Origin: Naegleria gruberi
Lineage: Eukaryota
NCBI GenBank assembly: GCA_000004985.1
Contig: GG738881.1
DNA: 64,000 nucleotides
Direction: 5' to 3' (one strand)
In this document: positions 6-22,455 of the stretch, piece after piece
How the letters are laid out: each line of letters opens with the position of its first letter
Numbering within the stretch: position 1 is the first letter of the stretch
Translations under genes and position numbers: made by a program
The notes under the pieces: model-generated
The model's input: the letters and a program-made list of their open reading frames with translations, nothing else
The model's database searches: none
What the model was told of the DNA's origin: nothing

Positions 6-1560
6 ATGTCTCTCCCCCTAACCAAAAAGCTGAAGAGTTTTGTTCGTGAATTTGTTGATTATGCATCAACGCTATCCACTGGATATGTGATTGGAGCAAA
101 TTTATTTGGATTAATATTTATTGCTTTTCTTTCTTTTATGATTTATACAGTAATGACAAATTATTGGGATACTTTACAAAAAGTAAGAATAATGCTCAAC
201 TATTTACCTTTGGATACTATTGATAGAAATGATGTATTGAGAAACAACGTGCTTTATCACTCATATCCATCAATAGTAGAAATTAATGTGTTGAATAACA
301 GCTCAAAAAGAAGTAGCAACAATACATACTTGGAAAACTTGTCAGAATTCATCAATAATCACATTGAAGGAACAGCTGTTCTCAATGAAAAAGGAGAAGT
401 GGAGGTAATCAATGTTTCAGCTCACAGAATGTTTGGAAGTAAACCTGCAGATATTTTGGGAGCTACATTCTTTAAACTGGTTGAGAATAGTTATTTGGAC
501 AAGATGAAAAAGACAATGAGTTCATTATGTGAGGCAGCTAAAAAAGCTTCTGAAGCTACCACATCTGAGCAATCAAAATTGACAGACACTATTGAGGTGG
601 ATTGTTTTAGAATGAATCAAACCAAATTCCCTGCCAAATTATCATTTTTTACCAGTAATATTACAGGAAAGGGAATTATGATTGTTTGCACCATTAAGGA
701 TATCACTTCAGAGAAGAAACAAAATGCCCTCCTTGCAGAAGAAAAGAAAAATTCTGAAAATCTCTTGAAGAATATATTACCTGAGGGTGTAGCAGCAAGA
801 TTAAAGAAGGGTGAAACATTCATTGCTGAGAAATTGAATGACATTACATGTTTCTTTTCAGATATGGTTGGATTCACCAAAATTTCAAGCAATATGCAAG
901 CAACAGATCTTGTCAAAATGTTGAATTATGTTGTGAATGGATTTGACAAATTGACTGAAAAGTATGATTTGGAAAAGATCAAAACCATTGGAGATGCTTA
1001 CTTTGTGGTTGGAGGACTCAAAGGTTCTTCAGACCATCCTGAAAGTATGCTCAAATTTGCAATTGAAACATTTGATGTAATTAAGGATTTCAACACGAAT
1101 GGAACGCTTCACAATGGAGAATTTTTAAATATCAGAGTTGGAATTAACACTGGTTCATGTGTTGCAGGTGTAATTGGTGTAAGTATCATTACAAAAATAT
1201 ATAATTAATATTATTAATTAACTGAATTAGATTAAAAAATTTGCCTATGATTTATGGGGTGATACCATCAATACAGCCTCTCGTATGGAATCAACAGGAG
1301 TTCCCGGAAGGATTCAAATTTCCAGAACAACCTATGAAAGAGTTTATGATTTGGGCTTTGAATTTGATGAAAGACAAGTTGAAGTGAAAGGAAAAGGACG
1401 TATGCAAGCATATCTTCTCAATTCCAAACATCATACCAATCCAGATCCATCTAAATCCACTCCAATTGGAGGTGATGATGCAGATGGTGAGGTGGTAGTT
1501 CAGAAATTAAACCAAGGTCAATCAATGTTCATTGAATCTACTACAATGGAAGAAAACTAA
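6..1560 (+). CDS. Class III adenylyl cyclase with an N-terminal TM segment and a PAS domain. Two exons: 6-1178 and 1231-1560, with a 52-bp intron 1179-1230 (gtaagt...ttag). The 5' end may lie outside the window.
   Basis: The cyclase motifs are present: FSDMVGFT, KIKTIGDAYF, GINTGSCVAGVIG|IKKFAYDLWGDTINTASRMES. The exon 1 and exon 2 ORFs are in different frames and are joined in-frame by the GT..AG intron. A PAS-like segment (NEKGEVEVINVSAHRMFGSKPADILG...IKDITSEKK) precedes a coiled-coil region. The specificity residues are Lys (KIKTIG) and Asp (YDLWG), which is the adenylyl-cyclase type. Confidence 0.85.
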
Positions 1561-1680
1561 AAATTATTGGGGGCCTATAGCATCTCCATACGGATTTTTA
1601 CCAATAAAAAAGATATTCCTCGCCAAGTTTCCTTTTATATTCATCTCCGCGCCTTTAGGAAGAAATTTAAATTTAAAAAA

Positions 1681-2418
1681 ATGCAAAAAATTCAAAATAA
1701 AAAAATGTTTGAACCAAAACTAATTTCCCGCCCAATGTCATCCCATTCCTCACGATCAAATAGTTTAAAAACCATTTCCAGAATTAGTGGATTGAGTTTA
1801 ATAATAATGTTCTTTGCAGCCATGCACGCAGAAATGATGGTCAGAGCAAAACTAATCATTCCGAATAATGTTCATCAAACGCTCGATAATATTCGTGATC
1901 ATAATTGGTTGTTTTATAGTGGCTTGCTTTCTTATTTAATTGTTTTAATGTGTGATTTGGTAGTTTCTGTCGGAATGCACATTTACCTGAAGAGATTTGA
2001 TGAGAAATTGTCGTGGATTGTTGCATCAATGAGAGTGATTTATACAATGATATTTTCCTATGCCATTATACAATTGTTTGTTGGGTTTCAATTGGCGCTT
2101 CATCCAAAATTTGAAAAGCAAGTGACTTGTATGAAGTATTTTGAAGAGTTTGAAATGATTTTCAATGGAGCTTTGATTTTATTTGGAGTTTATTTGATAT
2201 TTGCTGCTTGGTTGTGTAAGAAATCGAATTTAATTTACAAGTGGGTCTGTATTTTGTTGGCTATTGCTGGATTGGCTTATTGTGTGGATAATATTTTAAA
2301 GTTGAGTTATAGTAAGGAATATTATGTGGAACATTATCAATCTGTGACCCTGCCTCTTGTTGCTATTCCAGCAATATTTGGAGAAGTAGGATTGGCTATT
2401 TCACTACTCAGACAGTGA
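1681..2418 (+). CDS. Multi-pass membrane protein resembling the bacterial DUF4386 family. The ORF is open from 1567; the start was chosen at the first plausible Met.
   Basis: The product has 4-5 hydrophobic helices. Its motif layout (AEMMVRAKLIIP...NIRDHNWLFYSGLLSYLIVLMCDLVV...AIAGLAYCVDNILKLSYSKEYYVE...IPAIFGEVGLAISLL) parallels DUF4386 proteins (AE..VR..LI.P, FR.G..S.L...D, AGLGYLIDS...Y.E, IPAFI.E..L). Confidence 0.55.
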   Translation: MQKIQNKKMFEPKLISRPMSSHSSRSNSLKTISRISGLSLIIMFFAAMHAEMMVRAKLIIPNNVHQTLDNIRDHNWLFYSGLLSYLIVLMCDLVVSVGMHIYLKRFDEKLSWIVASMRVIYTMIFSYAIIQLFVGFQLALHPKFEKQVTCMKYFEEFEMIFNGALILFGVYLIFAAWLCKKSNLIYKWVCILLAIAGLAYCVDNILKLSYSKEYYVEHYQSVTLPLVAIPAIFGEVGLAISLLRQ

Positions 2419-3364: not shown

Positions 3365-4926
3365 TTACTCAATGTTAGCAGAGATACTGAGATCAGCTTG
3401 AGTCAAACCCATGTTACCGTTACCAAACAAATTGTGTGGGTCAATCTTTTGCTTGAGACCCTTCAAGATGTCAACACCTTGATCTCTGACAACTTCATTC
3501 ATCCATTCTCTTCTGAGCTTACCAATACCGTGGTGGTGAGACAAACTTCCTCCTTGGAGCAAGATTTCATCTCTGGCTTCAGATTCAATTTCAGAGAAGA
3601 CCTTAATTGGATCACTCAATCCTCTAAAGATGAAACCATAATAGAAGTAGACACAAGCACCAGTTTCATAAGTTTGAGTAACACGAGCAGAAACCCAAGG
3701 AACTGATGGAACACCCTTCTTCTTGGCAGATTCCTTAACTCTTTCTTCAACCTTCTTAATCATTGGAACAATGTTAGACCATGGAACAGAGGTTTCAAAG
3801 CTTTCGGCCATAAAGTAATAATTGAAACCATAATCTCTCAAATAAGCAATAACATAGGTAAGCAAATATCCTCTAGAACCAGCTTCAGCACCAGCCTTAA
3901 GACCACCATACTTGGAAGTAATATCATAAATAATCTTTTGTTGTCTATCAACTTCTTCTTGAGTACCTTCAAAGAGCAATGTGACAACACACATCTTTTC
4001 TGGATCAAAACCACAGACCNNNNNNNNNNNNNNNNNNNNNNNNNNNNNNNNNNNNNNNNNNNNNNNNNNNNNNNNNNNNNNNNNNNNNNNNNNNNNNNNN
4101 NNNNNNNNNNNNNNNNNNNNNNNNNNNNNNNNNNNNNNNNNNNNNNNNNNNNNNNNNNNNNNNNNNNNTCGTGACCAAGAGTCAAATTAAACTTATCCTT
4201 AAGTTCCTTTTGTAATTCAATACCAATAGCACCAGCTTCAATAACAGCAGTATTGGATTCAAAATCAACACTCAAAATACGATCCATTTCTTGAGTATCA
4301 ATAGAAACAATCATTCTCTTTTCATTTTCTGGACAGAGCAAAGCTTGAGTGACGTTAGTACCACCACCATATGGAATAATTGTTAATTGTTCAGGATATT
4401 TAGTAGCAATAGAAACAATCTTTTCAACATGATCGTGTGAATCTGGATAGATGACAACGTCAACAAGTCTCTTGAATTTTCCGTATCTGAGTTGATAAAT
4501 TTCTTGACAACAGTGACCATGGGAGTGCATCAAACGGACTTCATCATCAAAAGACAAATACTTGAAGCAATTAGCTTGTTTAAGTTCATCAACGAATGAT
4601 TTACAAATTACTGGCTTGTGGATCTTTTGTTGCATCTCAGGCCAAGATTGAGCAGGAGAAGCATATCTAGTGTCCAAACCAGTAAAGTTTTCAAACCATG
4701 GACGGAAATCAGGAATACATTTACCAGATAAAACATAACGATCACCAGTAACATAAACGTCCTTCTTTTCATCCATAGTAAAATCGGTATCCTTGTATCC
4801 CCATCCGTTCCACTTGGCCAATTTTTGTCTCTTGTTTGGAATACCAGTACCCATCTTTTCCTTGGACATTGTCAATAGAGTAGGAGAAGTTGGAACGCCA
4901 CCAGCGCAAACATTAGAAGACACCAT
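3365..4926 (-). CDS. Alkyldihydroxyacetonephosphate synthase (FAD-linked oxidase family). Its middle is interrupted by the assembly gap 4020-4168.
   Basis: The N-terminal signature KLAKWNGWGYKD...GDRYVLSGKCIPDF and the FAD-binding region IIPYGGGTNV are present. The C-terminal half contains HHHGIGKLRREW. The two halves are read in different apparent frames only because of the N-gap. Confidence 0.85.
4020..4168. other. Assembly gap (149 N).
   Basis: Run of N in the sequence. Confidence 1.
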
Positions 4927-5508: not shown

Positions 5509-5579
5509 GCGTCGATGGTTTAGTGGTAGAATACGGCGTTGCCATCGCCGTGACCCGGGTTCAATTCCCGGTCGACGCA
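5509..5579 (+). tRNA. tRNA-Gly-GCC: tRNA-Gly (anticodon GCC).
   Basis: Cloverleaf GCGTCGA/TCGACGC acceptor stem, D-arm GGTTTAGTGGTAGAATAC, anticodon loop TTGCCAT, T-arm CCCGG GTTCAATT CCGGG, discriminator A. T-run downstream. Confidence 0.95.
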
Positions 5580-5919
5580 CTCCGAAATTAGTTTTATCTT
5601 TGGTAATTCTTGTTTTTATTTTTTATTAATTTAATCATCAAAAGAACACAAGCGTATCTACAATATTCTCAAATTTCAAGTCTTATATTGATCAAGATAA
5701 TCATCACAGTTTGAGCACTATTTTTTTGCAAAGATATTTTTTACTTTAAAAAAAATTGTTCCAACGAAAGGAAAAAGTATATTCTGCAACAATTAACATT
5801 TTTTGATCAAAATACTCATAGGAAATACACTTTTGACATAGTCTAATATGTACAAACAGACACGTGTTTCAAAAAAGCTAGGAAATCTGTCACAACTCAA
5901 CTAGAAAATGAACAATTGT

Positions 5920-6312
5920 TTAATAATTAAAATACACTAATGGTTCAGAATTAGACCAAATACAAGAAGCCTCATTATGCTTAATAGTTTCATGAATACT
6001 ATAAAAGTCATAAATTGGAGCATGTCTTTGACGATGCACTCTAATATGAATGCACAAATCTCCTCCAATATTAACCTTAATAAAATAATTAGTACCGTAC
6101 TCTACAATTTCTTCGGCATACTTTAAAACCTTCCAATTGGCAATGTGTTCGTGGAGGTGAGCATCATGGAAATGATGGACAGTACTCTCATGATGTTTCT
6201 GATGAAGAGAATGAATGGCTGCGTGCTTTATATGAGGCTGAGAGACAATTTCATCAATTTGAGGTGTACAATCATGAACAGGACCCATGTTATTATCACT
6301 GACTGAGGACAT
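5920..6312 (-). CDS. Stefin (type-1 cystatin) homolog with a His-rich insertion and a non-canonical inhibitory loop.
   Basis: It aligns to the stefin A/B N-terminal segment (TPQIDEIV versus TPEIQEIV) and to the core EYGTNYFIKVNIGGDLCIHIRVH versus VAGTNYFIKVHVGDEDFVHLRVF. The QVVAG motif is replaced by EIVEYG. A His-rich segment HIKHAAIHSLHQKHHESTVHHFHDAHLHEH is inserted. Confidence 0.7.
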   Translation of the reverse strand: MSSVSDNNMGPVHDCTPQIDEIVSQPHIKHAAIHSLHQKHHESTVHHFHDAHLHEHIANWKVLKYAEEIVEYGTNYFIKVNIGGDLCIHIRVHRQRHAPIYDFYSIHETIKHNEASCIWSNSEPLVYFNY

Positions 6313-6610
6313 TTTGCTGGTTTTATTTGTTTTTTTGTATGATTAAAATGAACTTTTTACTGTCTTACTATTTATTGAAAAAGTTTGAGTGCTAAATGAA
6401 GGAGAGATTCAAAAATGTTTGTTGACTCTGTGATAACGGTTATTGTAAATAGGATGATAGGTATTGATTGAGAACTGTTTTTGATCGCCAATTTGTGATG
6501 GCCATTGAAATAATTGATACAAAATGAATTTATCTCCCATTACAAAAATTCAATACAAAACTAAACTGTTTCCGTTCAAATATTTCACTTAAAAGAATTA
6601 TCCACATAAT

Positions 6611-8262
<1,652 letters not shown>

Positions 8263-8491
8263 TTTGATGATTAATGATAATTTTTTTGTGGTGGAAGAAA
8301 AATGGTGAAAAATTGATCTAGTATTTTGTTTCAGCAAGTGGAAGGTAAATGTCAATGCAAAAAGGATGAGTGCTGATGGATTTTGAGTATGTATTAATGT
8401 TTGTCCTTGTTTTGTGCTTGCCCGAGTGGTTCAAGTTAAAAATTGAATTGTGTAAAAGAATATGTGAGGGAAAATAAGAAAATGAATGTAT

Positions 8492-8565
8492 GCAGCGATA
8501 GATCAGTTGGTTAGATCGTAAGCCTAACACGCTTAAGGTCGCGGGTTCAAGCCCCGCTCGCTGTA
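8492..8565 (+). tRNA. tRNA-Val-AAC: tRNA-Val (anticodon AAC).
   Basis: The acceptor stem is GCAGCGA/TCGCTGT with a G1-U72 wobble pair. The anticodon arm AAGCC-TAACACG-CTTAA matches the eukaryotic Val-AAC family. T-arm GCGGG TTCAAGC CCCGC and a T4 run downstream. Confidence 0.9.
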
Positions 8566-8636
8566 GCCTTTTGCATGATAATTTATTAATTTAAGAACGG
8601 GCTAAAAAGTTACAATTTATTTGGATTGCTTTAATG

Positions 8637-10004
8637 TTACAATTTTGGTTCAGTTTTTACGTAATTCTCAATTTGTTGCTTAACATCCAAGTATTGTCTT
8701 TGAGATGGAACTTTTTCACCCAACAGGATCATTCTTGTAACCATTCCAGCAACTGAACTACCAAATTGCACCTCAGAAGCAAGTTGTGGCCAAGAAGTGA
8801 GTGTCTTACCAACTTGGAAGAATGATTCTACACCCCTCTTTGAAGCCAGAGGAATTGAAATGAATTGCACAACCAAGGCACGTTTCTGTTCTGGTGAAAA
8901 TTGGTCAACTTCCAACAATTCTTTCTGAATGAGTCCATGAAGAATTGGATAATCCTTATCCAAATCAAATCTTTCAATATCCAAAAGACCTCTGTCACTT
9001 GTTTCCATGACAACTGGAATTTGTACTTTTCTACAATGTTTTCTAACCAATACTTTGGTGTCAAAGCTGTCACATTCTTCAATGACAAGATCAATTAATT
9101 TTGTTTCAGGAGAACTTCCCAAAACTGTGGCAATATTATCCTTGTTTAAACCTTGTTCAAGGAATGTAACTTTGAGGTATGGATCCAATTCAGCAATAGC
9201 TCTCTTAATGAGAGTTCCCTTCATAATACCCAAATCCATGACGCTAGCTCTTAGACGATTCATATTCGAAAGGTCCAAATGATCGAAATCTGCCAAGACT
9301 AAATGACCACAACTTCTTTCCATGGCCAAAACCATAGCAGCAGCCTGTCCAACACTGAGACCAATCACAAGAACTGTCTTTTTCTCAAGTGCTTGTTGTT
9401 CCTCTGGTAGAATCTTGGAAACATTTCTAATAGTTCTCACACGAACGAAATCATCTTTATCCAAAACATGGACAAGTGAATTTCTCCATGGATAATAAAC
9501 CCAATTTCCATATTCTTGCATTGACTTTCCATTCAACTTTTCAGTAATCTTAGTATCGTACAATTCTTTTGACATTGGATGAAGAGAAGGATTTTCCAAC
9601 TTGATCAAATCCTTGATTTGCAAATCCATGGTGTCAAGTATTTGGATTGATGGATTAGATTTCAATAAAAGTGACAATTCATTGGCTTGCTCTGGGAGTT
9701 TAAAAATTACATGTTGATTCTCGGTTTGATGAAAGTTAATTTCCTTATTCGAATCAGAACTAATCTTGATCTGTTTAAAAATATTAGAAAGGGAACCAAT
9801 TTCTTTCTCACCACTCTTTTGATGAGAAACAGCAGAATTTGAACTAATATTTGCTGTTGAAGTTGAGTGCACACCTCTCACACTATTGGATGTCAACATG
9901 GTAGTCAATTGTGCAGATTTTTTGGTAAAATTATTGAATGCAACATTCTTGGATCTGTAACCAAGAGCTCTTAAACCATTAATCATCATTATTGGATTCT
10001 GCAA
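8637..10004 (-). CDS. ThiF/MoeB/E1-like adenylyltransferase-fold protein (455 aa) with a ~230-aa N-terminal region of unknown fold. Single exon.
   Basis: The C-terminal half carries the ThiF hallmarks VLVIGLSVGQAAAMVLA...LVLADFDHLDLSNMNRL. The N-terminus (YGNWVYYPWRNSLVHVLDKDDFVRVRTIRNV) is not recognisably Uba/Atg7/MOCS3-like. A Ser/Arg-rich N-tip may be a targeting peptide. Confidence 0.7.
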   Translation of the reverse strand: MQNPIMMINGLRALGYRSKNVAFNNFTKKSAQLTTMLTSNSVRGVHSTSTANISSNSAVSHQKSGEKEIGSLSNIFKQIKISSDSNKEINFHQTENQHVIFKLPEQANELSLLLKSNPSIQILDTMDLQIKDLIKLENPSLHPMSKELYDTKITEKLNGKSMQEYGNWVYYPWRNSLVHVLDKDDFVRVRTIRNVSKILPEEQQALEKKTVLVIGLSVGQAAAMVLAMERSCGHLVLADFDHLDLSNMNRLRASVMDLGIMKGTLIKRAIAELDPYLKVTFLEQGLNKDNIATVLGSSPETKLIDLVIEECDSFDTKVLVRKHCRKVQIPVVMETSDRGLLDIERFDLDKDYPILHGLIQKELLEVDQFSPEQKRALVVQFISIPLASKRGVESFFQVGKTLTSWPQLASEVQFGSSVAGMVTRMILLGEKVPSQRQYLDVKQQIENYVKTEPKL

Positions 10005-10408: not shown

Positions 10409-11406
10409 NNNNNNNNNNNNNNNNNNNNNNNNNNNNNNNNNNNNNNNNNNNNNNNNNNNNNNNNNNNNNNNNNNNNNNNNNNNNNNNNNNNNNNNNNNNN
10501 NNNNNNNNNNNNNNNNNNNNNNNNNNNNNNNNNNNNNNNNNNNNNNNNNNNNNNNNNNNNNNNNNNNNNNNNNNNNNNNNNNNNNNNNNNNNNNNNNNNN
10601 NNNNNNNNNNNNNNNNNNNNNNNNNNNNNNNNNNNNNNNNNNNNNNNNNNNNNNNNNNNNNNNNNNNNNNNNNNNNNNNNNNNNNNNNNNNNNNNNNNNN
10701 NNNNNNNNNNNNNNNNNNNNNNNNNNNNNNNNNNNNNNNNNNNNNNNNNNNNNNNNNNNNNNNNNNNNNNNNNNNNNNNNNNNNNNNNNNNNNNNNNNNN
10801 NNNNNNNNNNNNNNNNNNNNNNNNNNNNNNNNNNNNNNNNNNNNNNNNNNNNNNNNNNNNNNNNNNNNNNNNNNNNNNNNNNNNNNNNNNNNNNNNNNNN
10901 NNNNNNNNNNNNNNNNNNNNNNNNNNNNNNNNNNNNNNNNNNNNNNNNNNNNNNNNNNNNNNNNNNNNNNNNNNNNNNNNNNNNNNNNNNNNNNNNNNNN
11001 NNNNNNNNNNNNNNNNNNNNNNNNNNNNNNNNNNNNNNNNNNNNNNNNNNNNNNNNNNNNNNNNNNNNNNNNNNNNNNNNNNNNNNNNNNNNNNNNNNNN
11101 NNNNNNNNNNNNNNNNNNNNNNNNNNNNNNNNNNNNNNNNNNNNNNNNNNNNNNNNNNNNNNNNNNNNNNNNNNNNNNNNNNNNNNNNNNNNNNNNNNNN
11201 NNNNNNNNNNNNNNNNNNNNNNNNNNNNNNNNNNNNNNNNNNNNNNNNNNNNNNNNNNNNNNNNNNNNNNNNNNNNNNNNNNNNNNNNNNNNNNNNNNNN
11301 NNNNNNNNNNNNNNNNNNNNNNNNNNNNNNNNNNNNNNNNNNNNNNNNNNNNNNNNNNNNNNNNNNNNNNNNNNNNNNNNNNNNNNNNNNNNNNNNNNNN
11401 NNNNNN
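10409..11406. other. Assembly gap (998 N).
   Basis: Run of N in the sequence. Confidence 1.
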
Positions 11407-12017: not shown

Positions 12018-13136
12018 TCAGACAAGAAAACATGGCTTTGGTATTTCATTAGTCTTTTGAAAATTCTCAATTAAAATAGTTAGTCTGAAAATGGAGCCCT
12101 TATCAGAGTCAGTTGGTGGTTTGGTGAGCAAATGAATTCGAATAAATTCCAAAATTTTAACAAATTTTGACTTGTAGGTTTGGTACATTTTGTAAGCAGC
12201 AATTCCAAGAAATGAATCCAAAATTTCAATAGTGAATAAGTGATGTTGCGAGTTTAGTATGGCAGCAATCCATTCCCAACCCTTATCGATACCATATTGA
12301 TGACCTGGTGGATTGTGCTGAATGATCATGGCATAGACAGTAATGATATCGTTCATTCTGTTCATGAATTGTATTCGATTCTCCAATTTCCCATCCACTT
12401 CCTTGTATCCAATTTTTTTGAAATCAGTAATTTGACTGTTAGATCCAATTTCTGAATTAATTGGCATAGTAAACCCAGAATTGAAATGTATATATCCTAT
12501 TGCACTATCCAATATTGCTGGGAAATTGTTAGTCAATTCACAGGTGACCTGAATATAAGGCAGCACCTTTTTAAGGTCACTTGTTTGACTTGCTGCCTGA
12601 TCCACTGCTGTTTTTGCATAAAAGTACAAGTAGTTAGATAGTGTATTCGAATCTGTGTTTTTCATGATATGATCAAGTTCTGCTACAATTTCACTTTGGT
12701 TAGTTGCTGATATTCTGTTAATTGCCTTATTAATATGTTTCTTTGTAATATCCATTTTAGTTTCTCGATATAATAGTGACCATAGGTTCTTGCTAAACAT
12801 GGCTCTTAATGTTGTATTGAAATGTTTCAAATGGTCTCGGAGTCCAACACTTGGATTAATGTCATCCTCAATATCCAGAATGGTTTCAGTAGCAGTAGGA
12901 ATAGTTTGATAGTCTTTTTCCTCTTTAACGGATTTTCTCTCTTCCTTCACTTCCTCTTTTCCAATATTCTTGATAGTTTCTTCAACAGTATGTGATTTTT
13001 GATTTGAGTTTCGTTTCTTGGCTTGATGATCAACAATGTTCTCCTCAGATTTAATTTCATCCTCTGAGTCATATTCTTCTAAAAGTCCATATCGTCCAGA
13101 ACATTCCATTCCCTTCCGCAAAGAATGATCAATACT
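12018..13136 (-). CDS. Hypothetical protein. The 5' end runs into the 9.3-kb gap; at least 367 aa are visible.
   Basis: The long ORF remains open upstream of the first Met into the gap edge (…SIDHSLRKGMEC…). No recognised domain. Confidence 0.45.
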   Translation of the reverse strand, partial: SIDHSLRKGMECSGRYGLLEEYDSEDEIKSEENIVDHQAKKRNSNQKSHTVEETIKNIGKEEVKEERKSVKEEKDYQTIPTATETILDIEDDINPSVGLRDHLKHFNTTLRAMFSKNLWSLLYRETKMDITKKHINKAINRISATNQSEIVAELDHIMKNTDSNTLSNYLYFYAKTAVDQAASQTSDLKKVLPYIQVTCELTNNFPAILDSAIGYIHFNSGFTMPINSEIGSNSQITDFKKIGYKEVDGKLENRIQFMNRMNDIITVYAMIIQHNPPGHQYGIDKGWEWIAAILNSQHHLFTIEILDSFLGIAAYKMYQTYKSKFVKILEFIRIHLLTKPPTDSDKGSIFRLTILIENFQKTNEIPKPCFLV

Positions 13137-16100
13137 NNNNNNNNNNNNNNNNNNNNNNNNNNNNNNNNNNNNNNNNNNNNNNNNNNNNNNNNNNNNNNNN
13201 NNNNNNNNNNNNNNNNNNNNNNNNNNNNNNNNNNNNNNNNNNNNNNNNNNNNNNNNNNNNNNNNNNNNNNNNNNNNNNNNNNNNNNNNNNNNNNNNNNNN
13301 NNNNNNNNNNNNNNNNNNNNNNNNNNNNNNNNNNNNNNNNNNNNNNNNNNNNNNNNNNNNNNNNNNNNNNNNNNNNNNNNNNNNNNNNNNNNNNNNNNNN
13401 NNNNNNNNNNNNNNNNNNNNNNNNNNNNNNNNNNNNNNNNNNNNNNNNNNNNNNNNNNNNNNNNNNNNNNNNNNNNNNNNNNNNNNNNNNNNNNNNNNNN
13501 NNNNNNNNNNNNNNNNNNNNNNNNNNNNNNNNNNNNNNNNNNNNNNNNNNNNNNNNNNNNNNNNNNNNNNNNNNNNNNNNNNNNNNNNNNNNNNNNNNNN
13601 NNNNNNNNNNNNNNNNNNNNNNNNNNNNNNNNNNNNNNNNNNNNNNNNNNNNNNNNNNNNNNNNNNNNNNNNNNNNNNNNNNNNNNNNNNNNNNNNNNNN
13701 NNNNNNNNNNNNNNNNNNNNNNNNNNNNNNNNNNNNNNNNNNNNNNNNNNNNNNNNNNNNNNNNNNNNNNNNNNNNNNNNNNNNNNNNNNNNNNNNNNNN
13801 NNNNNNNNNNNNNNNNNNNNNNNNNNNNNNNNNNNNNNNNNNNNNNNNNNNNNNNNNNNNNNNNNNNNNNNNNNNNNNNNNNNNNNNNNNNNNNNNNNNN
13901 NNNNNNNNNNNNNNNNNNNNNNNNNNNNNNNNNNNNNNNNNNNNNNNNNNNNNNNNNNNNNNNNNNNNNNNNNNNNNNNNNNNNNNNNNNNNNNNNNNNN
14001 NNNNNNNNNNNNNNNNNNNNNNNNNNNNNNNNNNNNNNNNNNNNNNNNNNNNNNNNNNNNNNNNNNNNNNNNNNNNNNNNNNNNNNNNNNNNNNNNNNNN
14101 NNNNNNNNNNNNNNNNNNNNNNNNNNNNNNNNNNNNNNNNNNNNNNNNNNNNNNNNNNNNNNNNNNNNNNNNNNNNNNNNNNNNNNNNNNNNNNNNNNNN
14201 NNNNNNNNNNNNNNNNNNNNNNNNNNNNNNNNNNNNNNNNNNNNNNNNNNNNNNNNNNNNNNNNNNNNNNNNNNNNNNNNNNNNNNNNNNNNNNNNNNNN
14301 NNNNNNNNNNNNNNNNNNNNNNNNNNNNNNNNNNNNNNNNNNNNNNNNNNNNNNNNNNNNNNNNNNNNNNNNNNNNNNNNNNNNNNNNNNNNNNNNNNNN
14401 NNNNNNNNNNNNNNNNNNNNNNNNNNNNNNNNNNNNNNNNNNNNNNNNNNNNNNNNNNNNNNNNNNNNNNNNNNNNNNNNNNNNNNNNNNNNNNNNNNNN
14501 NNNNNNNNNNNNNNNNNNNNNNNNNNNNNNNNNNNNNNNNNNNNNNNNNNNNNNNNNNNNNNNNNNNNNNNNNNNNNNNNNNNNNNNNNNNNNNNNNNNN
14601 NNNNNNNNNNNNNNNNNNNNNNNNNNNNNNNNNNNNNNNNNNNNNNNNNNNNNNNNNNNNNNNNNNNNNNNNNNNNNNNNNNNNNNNNNNNNNNNNNNNN
14701 NNNNNNNNNNNNNNNNNNNNNNNNNNNNNNNNNNNNNNNNNNNNNNNNNNNNNNNNNNNNNNNNNNNNNNNNNNNNNNNNNNNNNNNNNNNNNNNNNNNN
14801 NNNNNNNNNNNNNNNNNNNNNNNNNNNNNNNNNNNNNNNNNNNNNNNNNNNNNNNNNNNNNNNNNNNNNNNNNNNNNNNNNNNNNNNNNNNNNNNNNNNN
14901 NNNNNNNNNNNNNNNNNNNNNNNNNNNNNNNNNNNNNNNNNNNNNNNNNNNNNNNNNNNNNNNNNNNNNNNNNNNNNNNNNNNNNNNNNNNNNNNNNNNN
15001 NNNNNNNNNNNNNNNNNNNNNNNNNNNNNNNNNNNNNNNNNNNNNNNNNNNNNNNNNNNNNNNNNNNNNNNNNNNNNNNNNNNNNNNNNNNNNNNNNNNN
15101 NNNNNNNNNNNNNNNNNNNNNNNNNNNNNNNNNNNNNNNNNNNNNNNNNNNNNNNNNNNNNNNNNNNNNNNNNNNNNNNNNNNNNNNNNNNNNNNNNNNN
15201 NNNNNNNNNNNNNNNNNNNNNNNNNNNNNNNNNNNNNNNNNNNNNNNNNNNNNNNNNNNNNNNNNNNNNNNNNNNNNNNNNNNNNNNNNNNNNNNNNNNN
15301 NNNNNNNNNNNNNNNNNNNNNNNNNNNNNNNNNNNNNNNNNNNNNNNNNNNNNNNNNNNNNNNNNNNNNNNNNNNNNNNNNNNNNNNNNNNNNNNNNNNN
15401 NNNNNNNNNNNNNNNNNNNNNNNNNNNNNNNNNNNNNNNNNNNNNNNNNNNNNNNNNNNNNNNNNNNNNNNNNNNNNNNNNNNNNNNNNNNNNNNNNNNN
15501 NNNNNNNNNNNNNNNNNNNNNNNNNNNNNNNNNNNNNNNNNNNNNNNNNNNNNNNNNNNNNNNNNNNNNNNNNNNNNNNNNNNNNNNNNNNNNNNNNNNN
15601 NNNNNNNNNNNNNNNNNNNNNNNNNNNNNNNNNNNNNNNNNNNNNNNNNNNNNNNNNNNNNNNNNNNNNNNNNNNNNNNNNNNNNNNNNNNNNNNNNNNN
15701 NNNNNNNNNNNNNNNNNNNNNNNNNNNNNNNNNNNNNNNNNNNNNNNNNNNNNNNNNNNNNNNNNNNNNNNNNNNNNNNNNNNNNNNNNNNNNNNNNNNN
15801 NNNNNNNNNNNNNNNNNNNNNNNNNNNNNNNNNNNNNNNNNNNNNNNNNNNNNNNNNNNNNNNNNNNNNNNNNNNNNNNNNNNNNNNNNNNNNNNNNNNN
15901 NNNNNNNNNNNNNNNNNNNNNNNNNNNNNNNNNNNNNNNNNNNNNNNNNNNNNNNNNNNNNNNNNNNNNNNNNNNNNNNNNNNNNNNNNNNNNNNNNNNN
16001 NNNNNNNNNNNNNNNNNNNNNNNNNNNNNNNNNNNNNNNNNNNNNNNNNNNNNNNNNNNNNNNNNNNNNNNNNNNNNNNNNNNNNNNNNNNNNNNNNNNN

Positions 16101-19100
16101 NNNNNNNNNNNNNNNNNNNNNNNNNNNNNNNNNNNNNNNNNNNNNNNNNNNNNNNNNNNNNNNNNNNNNNNNNNNNNNNNNNNNNNNNNNNNNNNNNNNN
16201 NNNNNNNNNNNNNNNNNNNNNNNNNNNNNNNNNNNNNNNNNNNNNNNNNNNNNNNNNNNNNNNNNNNNNNNNNNNNNNNNNNNNNNNNNNNNNNNNNNNN
16301 NNNNNNNNNNNNNNNNNNNNNNNNNNNNNNNNNNNNNNNNNNNNNNNNNNNNNNNNNNNNNNNNNNNNNNNNNNNNNNNNNNNNNNNNNNNNNNNNNNNN
16401 NNNNNNNNNNNNNNNNNNNNNNNNNNNNNNNNNNNNNNNNNNNNNNNNNNNNNNNNNNNNNNNNNNNNNNNNNNNNNNNNNNNNNNNNNNNNNNNNNNNN
16501 NNNNNNNNNNNNNNNNNNNNNNNNNNNNNNNNNNNNNNNNNNNNNNNNNNNNNNNNNNNNNNNNNNNNNNNNNNNNNNNNNNNNNNNNNNNNNNNNNNNN
16601 NNNNNNNNNNNNNNNNNNNNNNNNNNNNNNNNNNNNNNNNNNNNNNNNNNNNNNNNNNNNNNNNNNNNNNNNNNNNNNNNNNNNNNNNNNNNNNNNNNNN
16701 NNNNNNNNNNNNNNNNNNNNNNNNNNNNNNNNNNNNNNNNNNNNNNNNNNNNNNNNNNNNNNNNNNNNNNNNNNNNNNNNNNNNNNNNNNNNNNNNNNNN
16801 NNNNNNNNNNNNNNNNNNNNNNNNNNNNNNNNNNNNNNNNNNNNNNNNNNNNNNNNNNNNNNNNNNNNNNNNNNNNNNNNNNNNNNNNNNNNNNNNNNNN
16901 NNNNNNNNNNNNNNNNNNNNNNNNNNNNNNNNNNNNNNNNNNNNNNNNNNNNNNNNNNNNNNNNNNNNNNNNNNNNNNNNNNNNNNNNNNNNNNNNNNNN
17001 NNNNNNNNNNNNNNNNNNNNNNNNNNNNNNNNNNNNNNNNNNNNNNNNNNNNNNNNNNNNNNNNNNNNNNNNNNNNNNNNNNNNNNNNNNNNNNNNNNNN
17101 NNNNNNNNNNNNNNNNNNNNNNNNNNNNNNNNNNNNNNNNNNNNNNNNNNNNNNNNNNNNNNNNNNNNNNNNNNNNNNNNNNNNNNNNNNNNNNNNNNNN
17201 NNNNNNNNNNNNNNNNNNNNNNNNNNNNNNNNNNNNNNNNNNNNNNNNNNNNNNNNNNNNNNNNNNNNNNNNNNNNNNNNNNNNNNNNNNNNNNNNNNNN
17301 NNNNNNNNNNNNNNNNNNNNNNNNNNNNNNNNNNNNNNNNNNNNNNNNNNNNNNNNNNNNNNNNNNNNNNNNNNNNNNNNNNNNNNNNNNNNNNNNNNNN
17401 NNNNNNNNNNNNNNNNNNNNNNNNNNNNNNNNNNNNNNNNNNNNNNNNNNNNNNNNNNNNNNNNNNNNNNNNNNNNNNNNNNNNNNNNNNNNNNNNNNNN
17501 NNNNNNNNNNNNNNNNNNNNNNNNNNNNNNNNNNNNNNNNNNNNNNNNNNNNNNNNNNNNNNNNNNNNNNNNNNNNNNNNNNNNNNNNNNNNNNNNNNNN
17601 NNNNNNNNNNNNNNNNNNNNNNNNNNNNNNNNNNNNNNNNNNNNNNNNNNNNNNNNNNNNNNNNNNNNNNNNNNNNNNNNNNNNNNNNNNNNNNNNNNNN
17701 NNNNNNNNNNNNNNNNNNNNNNNNNNNNNNNNNNNNNNNNNNNNNNNNNNNNNNNNNNNNNNNNNNNNNNNNNNNNNNNNNNNNNNNNNNNNNNNNNNNN
17801 NNNNNNNNNNNNNNNNNNNNNNNNNNNNNNNNNNNNNNNNNNNNNNNNNNNNNNNNNNNNNNNNNNNNNNNNNNNNNNNNNNNNNNNNNNNNNNNNNNNN
17901 NNNNNNNNNNNNNNNNNNNNNNNNNNNNNNNNNNNNNNNNNNNNNNNNNNNNNNNNNNNNNNNNNNNNNNNNNNNNNNNNNNNNNNNNNNNNNNNNNNNN
18001 NNNNNNNNNNNNNNNNNNNNNNNNNNNNNNNNNNNNNNNNNNNNNNNNNNNNNNNNNNNNNNNNNNNNNNNNNNNNNNNNNNNNNNNNNNNNNNNNNNNN
18101 NNNNNNNNNNNNNNNNNNNNNNNNNNNNNNNNNNNNNNNNNNNNNNNNNNNNNNNNNNNNNNNNNNNNNNNNNNNNNNNNNNNNNNNNNNNNNNNNNNNN
18201 NNNNNNNNNNNNNNNNNNNNNNNNNNNNNNNNNNNNNNNNNNNNNNNNNNNNNNNNNNNNNNNNNNNNNNNNNNNNNNNNNNNNNNNNNNNNNNNNNNNN
18301 NNNNNNNNNNNNNNNNNNNNNNNNNNNNNNNNNNNNNNNNNNNNNNNNNNNNNNNNNNNNNNNNNNNNNNNNNNNNNNNNNNNNNNNNNNNNNNNNNNNN
18401 NNNNNNNNNNNNNNNNNNNNNNNNNNNNNNNNNNNNNNNNNNNNNNNNNNNNNNNNNNNNNNNNNNNNNNNNNNNNNNNNNNNNNNNNNNNNNNNNNNNN
18501 NNNNNNNNNNNNNNNNNNNNNNNNNNNNNNNNNNNNNNNNNNNNNNNNNNNNNNNNNNNNNNNNNNNNNNNNNNNNNNNNNNNNNNNNNNNNNNNNNNNN
18601 NNNNNNNNNNNNNNNNNNNNNNNNNNNNNNNNNNNNNNNNNNNNNNNNNNNNNNNNNNNNNNNNNNNNNNNNNNNNNNNNNNNNNNNNNNNNNNNNNNNN
18701 NNNNNNNNNNNNNNNNNNNNNNNNNNNNNNNNNNNNNNNNNNNNNNNNNNNNNNNNNNNNNNNNNNNNNNNNNNNNNNNNNNNNNNNNNNNNNNNNNNNN
18801 NNNNNNNNNNNNNNNNNNNNNNNNNNNNNNNNNNNNNNNNNNNNNNNNNNNNNNNNNNNNNNNNNNNNNNNNNNNNNNNNNNNNNNNNNNNNNNNNNNNN
18901 NNNNNNNNNNNNNNNNNNNNNNNNNNNNNNNNNNNNNNNNNNNNNNNNNNNNNNNNNNNNNNNNNNNNNNNNNNNNNNNNNNNNNNNNNNNNNNNNNNNN
19001 NNNNNNNNNNNNNNNNNNNNNNNNNNNNNNNNNNNNNNNNNNNNNNNNNNNNNNNNNNNNNNNNNNNNNNNNNNNNNNNNNNNNNNNNNNNNNNNNNNNN

Positions 19101-22100
19101 NNNNNNNNNNNNNNNNNNNNNNNNNNNNNNNNNNNNNNNNNNNNNNNNNNNNNNNNNNNNNNNNNNNNNNNNNNNNNNNNNNNNNNNNNNNNNNNNNNNN
19201 NNNNNNNNNNNNNNNNNNNNNNNNNNNNNNNNNNNNNNNNNNNNNNNNNNNNNNNNNNNNNNNNNNNNNNNNNNNNNNNNNNNNNNNNNNNNNNNNNNNN
19301 NNNNNNNNNNNNNNNNNNNNNNNNNNNNNNNNNNNNNNNNNNNNNNNNNNNNNNNNNNNNNNNNNNNNNNNNNNNNNNNNNNNNNNNNNNNNNNNNNNNN
19401 NNNNNNNNNNNNNNNNNNNNNNNNNNNNNNNNNNNNNNNNNNNNNNNNNNNNNNNNNNNNNNNNNNNNNNNNNNNNNNNNNNNNNNNNNNNNNNNNNNNN
19501 NNNNNNNNNNNNNNNNNNNNNNNNNNNNNNNNNNNNNNNNNNNNNNNNNNNNNNNNNNNNNNNNNNNNNNNNNNNNNNNNNNNNNNNNNNNNNNNNNNNN
19601 NNNNNNNNNNNNNNNNNNNNNNNNNNNNNNNNNNNNNNNNNNNNNNNNNNNNNNNNNNNNNNNNNNNNNNNNNNNNNNNNNNNNNNNNNNNNNNNNNNNN
19701 NNNNNNNNNNNNNNNNNNNNNNNNNNNNNNNNNNNNNNNNNNNNNNNNNNNNNNNNNNNNNNNNNNNNNNNNNNNNNNNNNNNNNNNNNNNNNNNNNNNN
19801 NNNNNNNNNNNNNNNNNNNNNNNNNNNNNNNNNNNNNNNNNNNNNNNNNNNNNNNNNNNNNNNNNNNNNNNNNNNNNNNNNNNNNNNNNNNNNNNNNNNN
19901 NNNNNNNNNNNNNNNNNNNNNNNNNNNNNNNNNNNNNNNNNNNNNNNNNNNNNNNNNNNNNNNNNNNNNNNNNNNNNNNNNNNNNNNNNNNNNNNNNNNN
20001 NNNNNNNNNNNNNNNNNNNNNNNNNNNNNNNNNNNNNNNNNNNNNNNNNNNNNNNNNNNNNNNNNNNNNNNNNNNNNNNNNNNNNNNNNNNNNNNNNNNN
20101 NNNNNNNNNNNNNNNNNNNNNNNNNNNNNNNNNNNNNNNNNNNNNNNNNNNNNNNNNNNNNNNNNNNNNNNNNNNNNNNNNNNNNNNNNNNNNNNNNNNN
20201 NNNNNNNNNNNNNNNNNNNNNNNNNNNNNNNNNNNNNNNNNNNNNNNNNNNNNNNNNNNNNNNNNNNNNNNNNNNNNNNNNNNNNNNNNNNNNNNNNNNN
20301 NNNNNNNNNNNNNNNNNNNNNNNNNNNNNNNNNNNNNNNNNNNNNNNNNNNNNNNNNNNNNNNNNNNNNNNNNNNNNNNNNNNNNNNNNNNNNNNNNNNN
20401 NNNNNNNNNNNNNNNNNNNNNNNNNNNNNNNNNNNNNNNNNNNNNNNNNNNNNNNNNNNNNNNNNNNNNNNNNNNNNNNNNNNNNNNNNNNNNNNNNNNN
20501 NNNNNNNNNNNNNNNNNNNNNNNNNNNNNNNNNNNNNNNNNNNNNNNNNNNNNNNNNNNNNNNNNNNNNNNNNNNNNNNNNNNNNNNNNNNNNNNNNNNN
20601 NNNNNNNNNNNNNNNNNNNNNNNNNNNNNNNNNNNNNNNNNNNNNNNNNNNNNNNNNNNNNNNNNNNNNNNNNNNNNNNNNNNNNNNNNNNNNNNNNNNN
20701 NNNNNNNNNNNNNNNNNNNNNNNNNNNNNNNNNNNNNNNNNNNNNNNNNNNNNNNNNNNNNNNNNNNNNNNNNNNNNNNNNNNNNNNNNNNNNNNNNNNN
20801 NNNNNNNNNNNNNNNNNNNNNNNNNNNNNNNNNNNNNNNNNNNNNNNNNNNNNNNNNNNNNNNNNNNNNNNNNNNNNNNNNNNNNNNNNNNNNNNNNNNN
20901 NNNNNNNNNNNNNNNNNNNNNNNNNNNNNNNNNNNNNNNNNNNNNNNNNNNNNNNNNNNNNNNNNNNNNNNNNNNNNNNNNNNNNNNNNNNNNNNNNNNN
21001 NNNNNNNNNNNNNNNNNNNNNNNNNNNNNNNNNNNNNNNNNNNNNNNNNNNNNNNNNNNNNNNNNNNNNNNNNNNNNNNNNNNNNNNNNNNNNNNNNNNN
21101 NNNNNNNNNNNNNNNNNNNNNNNNNNNNNNNNNNNNNNNNNNNNNNNNNNNNNNNNNNNNNNNNNNNNNNNNNNNNNNNNNNNNNNNNNNNNNNNNNNNN
21201 NNNNNNNNNNNNNNNNNNNNNNNNNNNNNNNNNNNNNNNNNNNNNNNNNNNNNNNNNNNNNNNNNNNNNNNNNNNNNNNNNNNNNNNNNNNNNNNNNNNN
21301 NNNNNNNNNNNNNNNNNNNNNNNNNNNNNNNNNNNNNNNNNNNNNNNNNNNNNNNNNNNNNNNNNNNNNNNNNNNNNNNNNNNNNNNNNNNNNNNNNNNN
21401 NNNNNNNNNNNNNNNNNNNNNNNNNNNNNNNNNNNNNNNNNNNNNNNNNNNNNNNNNNNNNNNNNNNNNNNNNNNNNNNNNNNNNNNNNNNNNNNNNNNN
21501 NNNNNNNNNNNNNNNNNNNNNNNNNNNNNNNNNNNNNNNNNNNNNNNNNNNNNNNNNNNNNNNNNNNNNNNNNNNNNNNNNNNNNNNNNNNNNNNNNNNN
21601 NNNNNNNNNNNNNNNNNNNNNNNNNNNNNNNNNNNNNNNNNNNNNNNNNNNNNNNNNNNNNNNNNNNNNNNNNNNNNNNNNNNNNNNNNNNNNNNNNNNN
21701 NNNNNNNNNNNNNNNNNNNNNNNNNNNNNNNNNNNNNNNNNNNNNNNNNNNNNNNNNNNNNNNNNNNNNNNNNNNNNNNNNNNNNNNNNNNNNNNNNNNN
21801 NNNNNNNNNNNNNNNNNNNNNNNNNNNNNNNNNNNNNNNNNNNNNNNNNNNNNNNNNNNNNNNNNNNNNNNNNNNNNNNNNNNNNNNNNNNNNNNNNNNN
21901 NNNNNNNNNNNNNNNNNNNNNNNNNNNNNNNNNNNNNNNNNNNNNNNNNNNNNNNNNNNNNNNNNNNNNNNNNNNNNNNNNNNNNNNNNNNNNNNNNNNN
22001 NNNNNNNNNNNNNNNNNNNNNNNNNNNNNNNNNNNNNNNNNNNNNNNNNNNNNNNNNNNNNNNNNNNNNNNNNNNNNNNNNNNNNNNNNNNNNNNNNNNN

Positions 22101-22455
22101 NNNNNNNNNNNNNNNNNNNNNNNNNNNNNNNNNNNNNNNNNNNNNNNNNNNNNNNNNNNNNNNNNNNNNNNNNNNNNNNNNNNNNNNNNNNNNNNNNNNN
22201 NNNNNNNNNNNNNNNNNNNNNNNNNNNNNNNNNNNNNNNNNNNNNNNNNNNNNNNNNNNNNNNNNNNNNNNNNNNNNNNNNNNNNNNNNNNNNNNNNNNN
22301 NNNNNNNNNNNNNNNNNNNNNNNNNNNNNNNNNNNNNNNNNNNNNNNNNNNNNNNNNNNNNNNNNNNNNNNNNNNNNNNNNNNNNNNNNNNNNNNNNNNN
22401 NNNNNNNNNNNNNNNNNNNNNNNNNNNNNNNNNNNNNNNNNNNNNNNNNNNNNNN
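13137..22455. other. Assembly gap (9319 N).
   Basis: Run of N. It is flanked on the right by a tandem-repeat coding region, which is the likely cause of the assembly break. Confidence 1.

Follow-up and report, generated by a model that had tools for sequence, protein, structure and literature searches.

A histidine-rich stefin-fold protein of Naegleria gruberi and its unannotated eukaryotic family

Cystatins and stefins are textbook inhibitors of cysteine proteases, and phylogenomic surveys say that Fungi lack them. A stretch of 64,000 nucleotides from Naegleria gruberi (GenBank assembly GCA_000004985.1, contig GG738881.1; hereafter the window) carries on its minus strand a small open reading frame (ORF; 5920-6312) whose product resembles a stefin and is rich in histidine. 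A preliminary description, drawn up from the sequence alone, had taken this product for a stefin with replaced protease-binding elements and an inserted His-rich segment, and had suggested that it was repurposed for metal binding or for an altered spectrum of targets. The locus raises two questions: does the protein descend from stefins, and does it still act as an inhibitor of papain-like proteases? We answer the first with high confidence: the protein derives from stefins (type-1 cystatins), keeps their fold and belongs to a conserved, unnamed eukaryotic subfamily. Our answer to the second is tentative and is developed below.

Gene structure and stefin ancestry

The ORF runs from an ATG at 6310-6312 to a TAA at 5920-5922 and forms a complete, intronless coding sequence of 130 codons, with an in-frame stop 10 codons 5' of the ATG. 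Its product, a divergent stefin-fold protein, matches N. gruberi NAEGRDRAFT_80480 (XP_002674956.1, UniProt D2VLW3) with 100% identity; this entry bears in UniProt the automatic name 'Cystatin domain-containing protein'. The gene lies on a 380-kb scaffold with ordinary eukaryotic genes on both sides, and its G+C content (34.9%) equals that of the neighbouring Naegleria genes. The continuity of the ORF, the stop codon shortly 5' of the ATG, the base composition and the genomic context all argue against an artefact, be it a mis-called ORF, a pseudogene, DNA from a contaminant or a retained intron that passes for a His-rich stretch. As judged from its sequence, NAEGRDRAFT_80480 would be an expressed-type intronless gene with a cytosolic product; no signal peptide was recognized on inspection of the hydrophilic N-terminus (MSSVSDNNMGPVHD), no dedicated predictor having been run. 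The protein consists of a single domain, and its three Cys residues are not conserved across the family.

All the peptides cited in the preliminary description do exist in the protein, namely TPQIDEIV (residues 16-23), EIVEYG (residues 68-73) and GTNYFIKVNIGGDLCIHIRVH (residues 73-93). The protein scores 14.4 bits with the Pfam Cystatin model (PF00031), under the cut-off of 22.2, and a single-sequence phmmer search of the Protein Data Bank (PDB) matched stefin B at E = 0.0014. When a profile that combined the protein with its homologues was compared with the PDB, the matches were confined to stefins/type-1 cystatins, with stefin B at E = 2e-5, and hhalign matched the family to a stefin alignment with a probability of 98.2% (E = 4.5e-14). 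The AlphaFold2 model of the N. gruberi protein, which has a predicted local distance difference test (pLDDT) score of 86.5 and a predicted template modelling (pTM) score of 0.82, comprises helices 17-23, 26-39 and 50-58, strands 61-70, 73-81, 87-95 and 101-106, and a small hairpin (109-116); residues 1-5 are predicted to be disordered. The protein is thus predicted to adopt the cystatin fold, a five-stranded antiparallel sheet around one helix, and the first-ranked structure retrieved with this model by Foldseek was stefin B in complex with papain (1stf_I, TM 0.74). The stefin kinship, weak in the single-sequence signal, becomes convincing only with profiles and structure, and profiles, hhalign, AlphaFold2 and Foldseek together uphold both the fold and the ancestry initially proposed. 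Pfam essentially fails to detect the family, since only 2 of 21 members match its Cystatin model at even E < 1. From these comparisons, the family appears to be homologous to stefins yet to lie beyond the curated Pfam Cystatin boundary.

The best structural and profile matches, which share the same fold, come from the type-1 cystatins (MEROPS I25A), the class of stefins A and B to which Clonorchis CsStefin-1 and fowlerstefin of N. fowleri also belong. Like them, the protein is single-domain, lacks a signal peptide (by inspection) and lacks a conserved disulfide; it also shares with them the GxNYFxKV strand, the (I/V)HxR strand, the C-terminal LxYF and, probably, the N-terminal hydrophobic-Gly segment. 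The cystatin-fold proteins that do not inhibit or have been retargeted (CRES/cystatin-8, latexin, SQAPI and monellin) are further away than stefins in both structure and sequence, and none has the helix insertion or the His cluster described below.

Departures from the stefin plan

The anatomy of the protein relative to stefins was taken from the hhalign result, an alignment with canonical stefins and column statistics over 23 aligned family members. The N. gruberi protein has 130 residues as against ~98 in stefins. Residues 16-32 (TPQIDEIVSQPHIKHAA; 6217-6267, minus strand like all features of the gene) correspond to the first two thirds of the central helix of stefins, which a two-residue insertion, Q25-P26, splits into helices 17-23 and 26-39. 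There follows a family-defining insertion of 17 residues (residues 33-49, IHSLHQKHHESTVHHFH; 6166-6216), absent from 5 of 5 canonical stefins, for which the model shows an extension of the helix and a loop. The insertion contains a VH motif whose His, His46, is invariant in the 23 aligned members; His37 occurs in 11 of 11 sequences of group 1, the set of relatives closest to the Naegleria protein (see below). By the alignment and the published topology of stefin B, its place within the last third of the stefin helix would put the insertion toward the pole opposite the protease-binding edge.

This anatomy changes the picture of a 30-residue insert with 13 His residues that had been given for the region before the first hairpin. 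The richness in His stands, but the segment in question (residues 27-56; 6145-6234) holds 12 His residues out of 30, and what is inserted relative to stefins amounts to 17+2 residues. The supposed 30-residue insert is therefore really one of 19, and in the remainder of the His-rich stretch it is ordinary helix residues that are replaced.

At the N-terminus, a tail formed by residues 1-12 (MSSVSDNNMGPV; 6277-6312) corresponds to the N-terminal trunk of stefins. It consists of an extension of 8 conserved residues, which stefins lack, followed by Met9-Gly10-Pro11-Val12. The conserved Gly of the trunk had been thought to be replaced; it is in fact present as Gly10 of M-G-P-V, with a hydrophobic residue before it, in 8/8 group-1 sequences that include the N-terminus and in many sequences of the more distant group 2. 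Since hhalign sets Gly10 three positions downstream of stefin Gly4, the positional equivalence of the two is no more than likely. The tail, MSSVSxNxMGPV, is the conserved element that stands out most; it matches that of Umbelopsis (Mucoromycota) at 10 of 12 positions, to be compared with ~42% identity over the whole proteins. N-myristoylation from an internal start at Met9-Gly10 was considered and ruled out: the Gly is directly followed by Pro, which the PROSITE myristoylation rule excludes, and the upstream MSSVS is conserved as protein.

The first hairpin (L1; residues 66-77, AEEIVEYGTNYF; 6082-6117) is the counterpart of the stefin segment (K)SQVVAGTNYF. As proposed initially, the QVVAG hairpin has given way to EIVEYG, so that the QxVxG motif of stefins is absent. 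L1 reads E68-I-V70-E-Y72-G73: the Gln has become Glu68 and an extra residue, Tyr72, precedes the conserved Gly73, the Val and the Gly being kept. Glu68 is found in 19/23 aligned members and Gly73 in 23/23; three chytrid two-domain proteins have His at position 68. In the window, tblastn and a motif scan detected neither an alternative exon that encodes QxVxG nor a paralogue.

Strand beta4 and the second hairpin (L2), together residues 88-99 (IHIRVHRQRHAP; 6016-6051), combine His89 and Arg91, which are common to stefins, with His93 (20/23) and His97, which are features of the family. L2 is shorter than in stefins (R-Q-R-H-A-P in N. gruberi, RQxHHD in the family consensus) and contains neither the LP motif of stefins nor the PW motif of cystatins. 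The C-terminal part bears a further family-specific insertion (residues 110-122, IKHNEASCIWSNS; 5947-5985), of ~8-13 residues relative to stefins, which is modelled as a small extra hairpin and has a conserved Trp/Phe119. The protein ends in PLVYFNY (residues 124-130; 5923-5943), which contains the conserved (P)LxYF motif common to stefins. A legumain-type SND/SNS site was dismissed, as other family members do not conserve the S120-N-S122 triplet.

The hallmarks of the family that can be recognized in the N. gruberi protein are thus the ExV(A/E)(Y/F)G hairpin, (F/Y)(Y/H)S in beta5, the C-terminal insertion with its Trp or Phe, and the MSSVSxNxMGPV tail. On the basis of the alignments, the subfamily is defined by the insertion of 17 residues with His46 toward the end of the central helix (its last third), the change from QxVxG to ExV(A/E)YG, a short His-containing L2 and the C-terminal insertion.

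These changes bear directly on the second question, since the protein might still be a tight-binding inhibitor of papain-like (C1) cysteine peptidases that has variant loops and whose His residues merely tune its charge or pH dependence, for example so that binding is favoured in acidic compartments or once lysosomes have leaked. The stefin fold and homology would fit such a role, and the M-G-P-V trunk, the Val70/Gly73 hairpin and the C-terminal YF are the best-conserved parts of the family. By contrast, the replacement of the Gln of QxVxG by Glu in most members, the lengthening of the hairpin by a bulky Tyr or Phe, and an L2 devoid of LP or PW speak against it. In engineered scaffolds, single changes in the trunk, L1 or L2 of stefin A (G4W, V48D) suffice to abolish the binding of cathepsins. 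Considering these points along with the distribution of potential target peptidases discussed below, we view C1 inhibition as possible but rather unlikely.

Family distribution and genomic surroundings

A hidden Markov model (HMM) search over 1.84 billion protein representatives returned 77 representatives at the cut-off of E <= 1e-3, canonical QVVAG stefins appearing only at its weak end. A word-indexed search with a broader alignment yielded 44 named or unnamed clusters and gave the organisms that hold the family. The insertion had been pictured as specific to one species; it marks instead a family of ~80 proteins, and about 80 relatives appear from the alignments to share the insertion with His46, the ExVxYG hairpin and the C-terminal insertion.

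Group 1 comprises proteins of 130 aa that are 58-69% identical to the Naegleria protein. They occur in the chytrids Chytriomyces, Physocladia and Rhizoclosmatium, in Plasmodiophora brassicae, in the acidophilic green alga Chlamydomonas eustigma and in the bdelloid rotifers Adineta and Rotaria. The group is therefore spread over Discoba (Naegleria), Fungi (the three chytrid genera), Rhizaria (Plasmodiophora), Chloroplastida (C. eustigma only) and bdelloid rotifers, a pattern that suggests either eukaryote-to-eukaryote horizontal transfer or extreme patchy retention. No match from N. fowleri was present among the results of the family searches.

Group 2, ~25-42% identical to the Naegleria protein, includes proteins of Mucoromycota (Umbelopsis, Hesseltinella, Cunninghamella), Geosiphon (Glomeromycota), Lunasporangiospora, Tulasnella and many Tremellales (Kwoniella, Tremella, Saitozyma, Cryptococcus depauperatus and C. 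floricola); its fungal members are 28-46% identical among themselves. In Batrachochytrium salamandrivorans and Synchytrium, the group-2 sequence forms the C-terminal domain of two-domain proteins, an arrangement also seen in three metagenomic proteins; the N-terminal partner is a conserved domain of ~135 residues with 3 homologues only. This partner has no Pfam match, and AlphaFold2 modelled a metagenomic two-domain protein at a pLDDT of 35, so that the fusion provided no functional clue. Unlike stefins, which are reported to be absent from Fungi (PMC2784779), the family does occur there. A search of 185,579 genomes produced no prokaryotic homologue, a weak negative as one degenerate pattern was used.

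The orthologues also settle the status of the His-rich stretch. The Chytriomyces gene has 3 introns and the Adineta gene 4, at positions that differ, and the His-rich part is exonic in both. As it is conserved in orthologues with different intron positions, the stretch is coding sequence rather than an intron or an artefact of annotation, a possibility raised in the preliminary description. The artefact explanation might draw on the subthreshold Pfam score and on the very patchy taxonomic spread, but the His-rich stretch is in frame in 130-aa orthologues from five other lineages, and the AlphaFold2 model is confident. In view of this and of the properties of the gene itself, we consider an artefact to be effectively refuted.

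In Adineta steineri, which has nine near-identical variants of the protein, the stefin-like gene is tandemly duplicated along with an adjacent gene for a 522-aa NHL-repeat protein, making a repeating two-gene unit (stefin-like copies at 386-975 and 6001-6590 of one contig and at 1323-1914 of another). Plasmodiophora also encodes the secreted cystatin effector SSPbP53, which we set aside as a separate protein, since it bears QxVxG. A search of the accessible literature found no paper on NAEGRDRAFT_80480, XP_002674956, D2VLW3, EFC42212 or the family, and the protein was not found in the portion covered here of the supplement to a paper on the copper proteome of N. gruberi.

The surroundings of the N. 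gruberi gene consist of unrelated housekeeping genes, with no cluster and no functional link to it. On the side of its stop codon lie a gene for a PAS-domain adenylate/guanylate cyclase (6-1208, plus strand), a DUF4386 ORF (1567-2418, plus strand; E = 3e-33), a FAD-binding (alkyl-DHAP-synthase-like) gene broken by an assembly gap (4020-4168) and, ~340 bp past the stop codon, a tRNA-Gly(GCC) gene (5509-5580, plus strand). DUF4386 is mostly bacterial, and the corresponding ORF is possibly a horizontally acquired gene in Naegleria. On the other side are an intron-containing gene for a Zn-dependent alcohol dehydrogenase (6611-8355, minus strand), a tRNA-Val(AAC) gene upstream of it (8491-8568, plus strand), a ThiF/E1-like enzyme gene (8637-10004, minus strand) and a gene for a GLE1-like protein (12018-13121, minus strand). 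Besides the gap at 4020-4168, runs of N occupy 10409-11406 and 13137-22455; the latter, a 9.3-kb gap, gives rise in mechanical ORF lists to spurious ORFs of ~3,100 aa on both strands.

Histidine content and possible function

The N. gruberi protein contains 18 His residues out of 130 (13.8%; binomial P ~1e-9 at a background of 2.3%) and has the most His-loaded version of the putative His cluster. His accounts for mostly 5-15% of residues in the family as against 1-5% in stefins. His-rich patches are found at non-homologous sites: in the helix insert in group 1, in the N-terminal extension in Tremellales, and in an L2 insert (THKHLHGHH) in one metagenomic member. In the Tremellales members, the extension is 45-65 residues long, starts with MQS(V/I)(I/V)D and carries a His/acid motif of the GHSHAEEHLH, THTHGDEHAH or NEHEHDHDH type; it represents an independent gain of His-rich sequence by the same fold. 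At positions 30, 40, 52 and 56, His alternates with Asp, Glu or Gln across the family. The computed net charge of the N. gruberi protein goes from about -2 at pH 7 to +8 at pH 6.

Two known systems are worth comparing. Human stefin B binds Cu(II) via His residues with picomolar affinity, the ligands being on the exposed helix face and L2 (His18, His75) and at the C-terminus and the beta3-beta4 loop (His92) (PMC3469841). The present family likewise has its His residues concentrated in the helix and L2 and close to the C-terminal region. Stefin B, however, is a canonical inhibitor with a few scattered His residues, whereas the present family combines a dedicated insert with a remodelled hairpin. 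Histidine-rich glycoprotein (HRG) and the fetuins, members of the type-3/4 cystatin superfamily, are secreted, disulfide-bonded, multi-domain plasma proteins of vertebrates, in which the His region is a separate low-complexity GHHPH repeat. By contrast, the N. gruberi protein is single-domain, with its His residues embedded in helices and a loop; it has no conserved Cys pairs and no tandem repeat, and shows no specific sequence relationship to these proteins.

What, then, might the protein do? The hydrophobic-Gly-Pro tail, L1, L2 and the C-terminal YF could continue to make up a binding edge of the stefin type whose preference has shifted from classical papain-like cathepsins, while the helix insertion and the nearby His residues could provide a divalent-metal (Cu/Zn/Ni) binding site or a pH-titratable cluster that modulates, or constitutes, the activity of the protein. 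The protein would then be a metal- or pH-responsive binding or regulatory module and not a housekeeping cathepsin inhibitor. The housekeeping task would be carried out by canonical QVVAG proteins: N. fowleri has two such inhibitors, fowlerstefin and NfCPI, and the NfCPI paper aligns an N. gruberi CPI, XP_002680758.1 (PMC6988287, PMC8063937), a cystatin-type inhibitor recorded for N. gruberi. Since the best-conserved segments are the stefin contact elements, we favour continued use of the old edge with a changed partner, the His cluster adding metal or pH responsiveness.

The distribution of the family is relevant here. Fungi, as Kordis and Turk report, have lost every ancestral C1A peptidase (PMC10380794), and most holders of the family are fungi; a role as a general classical C1 inhibitor is disfavoured for that reason. 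Naegleria and Plasmodiophora, in addition, also hold canonical QVVAG inhibitors. C1 inhibition would nevertheless find targets in several holders, as C1A peptidases are present in Naegleria, Plasmodiophora, rotifers and green algae (PMC10380794), and a vWFA-C1 peptidase, found in Fungi and sporadically in Discoba, would be a matching candidate. Taken together, the lack of ancestral C1A cathepsins in fungi and the recurrence of His patches at non-homologous sites favour a repurposed stefin, a notion that was plausible from the outset and is now somewhat strengthened. The protein probably does not serve as a classical inhibitor of cathepsins, and it may bind metal; a metal- or pH-responsive, non-cathepsin function is the reading toward which we lean, with less than even confidence.

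Several observations weigh against this reading. Apart from His46, and His89, which all stefins have, no His is invariant across both groups, and certain members are His-poor (3% in Tulasnella). A 98% identical variant in ENA, on a 3,240-bp contig, carries H13Q, S35A and H93Y; with Tyr at position 93, this very close relative shows that His93 can be dispensed with. The role of His46 could be structural only. Finally, the conserved trunk, an L1 that keeps Val70 and Gly73, and the C-terminal YF are, as far as sequence conservation goes, what a working protease inhibitor would be expected to show.

Conversion to yet another function also has to be weighed: the protein could be a binder of heme or another small ligand, an enzyme using His46 and nearby His or Glu residues, or an inhibitor of non-cysteine peptidases, for which latexin, fetuin-B and SQAPI provide precedents on the same fold. 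His46 and the conserved aromatic residues Trp60, Tyr72, Tyr101, Phe103, Tyr104 and Trp119, which have no stefin counterpart, are consistent with such a conversion, as is the fusion of chytrid members to the N-terminal domain of ~135 residues. On the other hand, the concave face of the sheet seems, from the alternation of residues, to be filled by hydrophobic core residues as in stefins, the protein has no similarity to any enzyme family, and the fusion partner was uninformative. We regard this conversion as improbable.

In its most complete form, the metal- or pH-responsive reading would have a stefin of early eukaryotes turned into an intracellular metal-binding or metal/pH-sensing protein that is independent of cathepsins and may clamp a partner by the old edge, that was kept in many fungi and that moved between supergroups by horizontal transfer. 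This full scenario is speculative, and we think it unlikely as a whole.

What the analysis adds is a stefin-derived family that is conserved yet lacks annotation, and that is marked by a helix insertion with an invariant His and by an ExVxYG loop. Its occurrence in fungi stands out, and so does its patchy spread over supergroups, where the level of identity is unusually high. If the family still inhibits C1 peptidases, ExVxYG would be a new functional variant of the binding loop. If it binds metal or a non-cathepsin partner, it would change what is known of the distribution of the superfamily and would offer a clean natural case of the repurposing of an inhibitor scaffold, one that matters for scaffolds engineered from stefins, such as Affimers and SQT.
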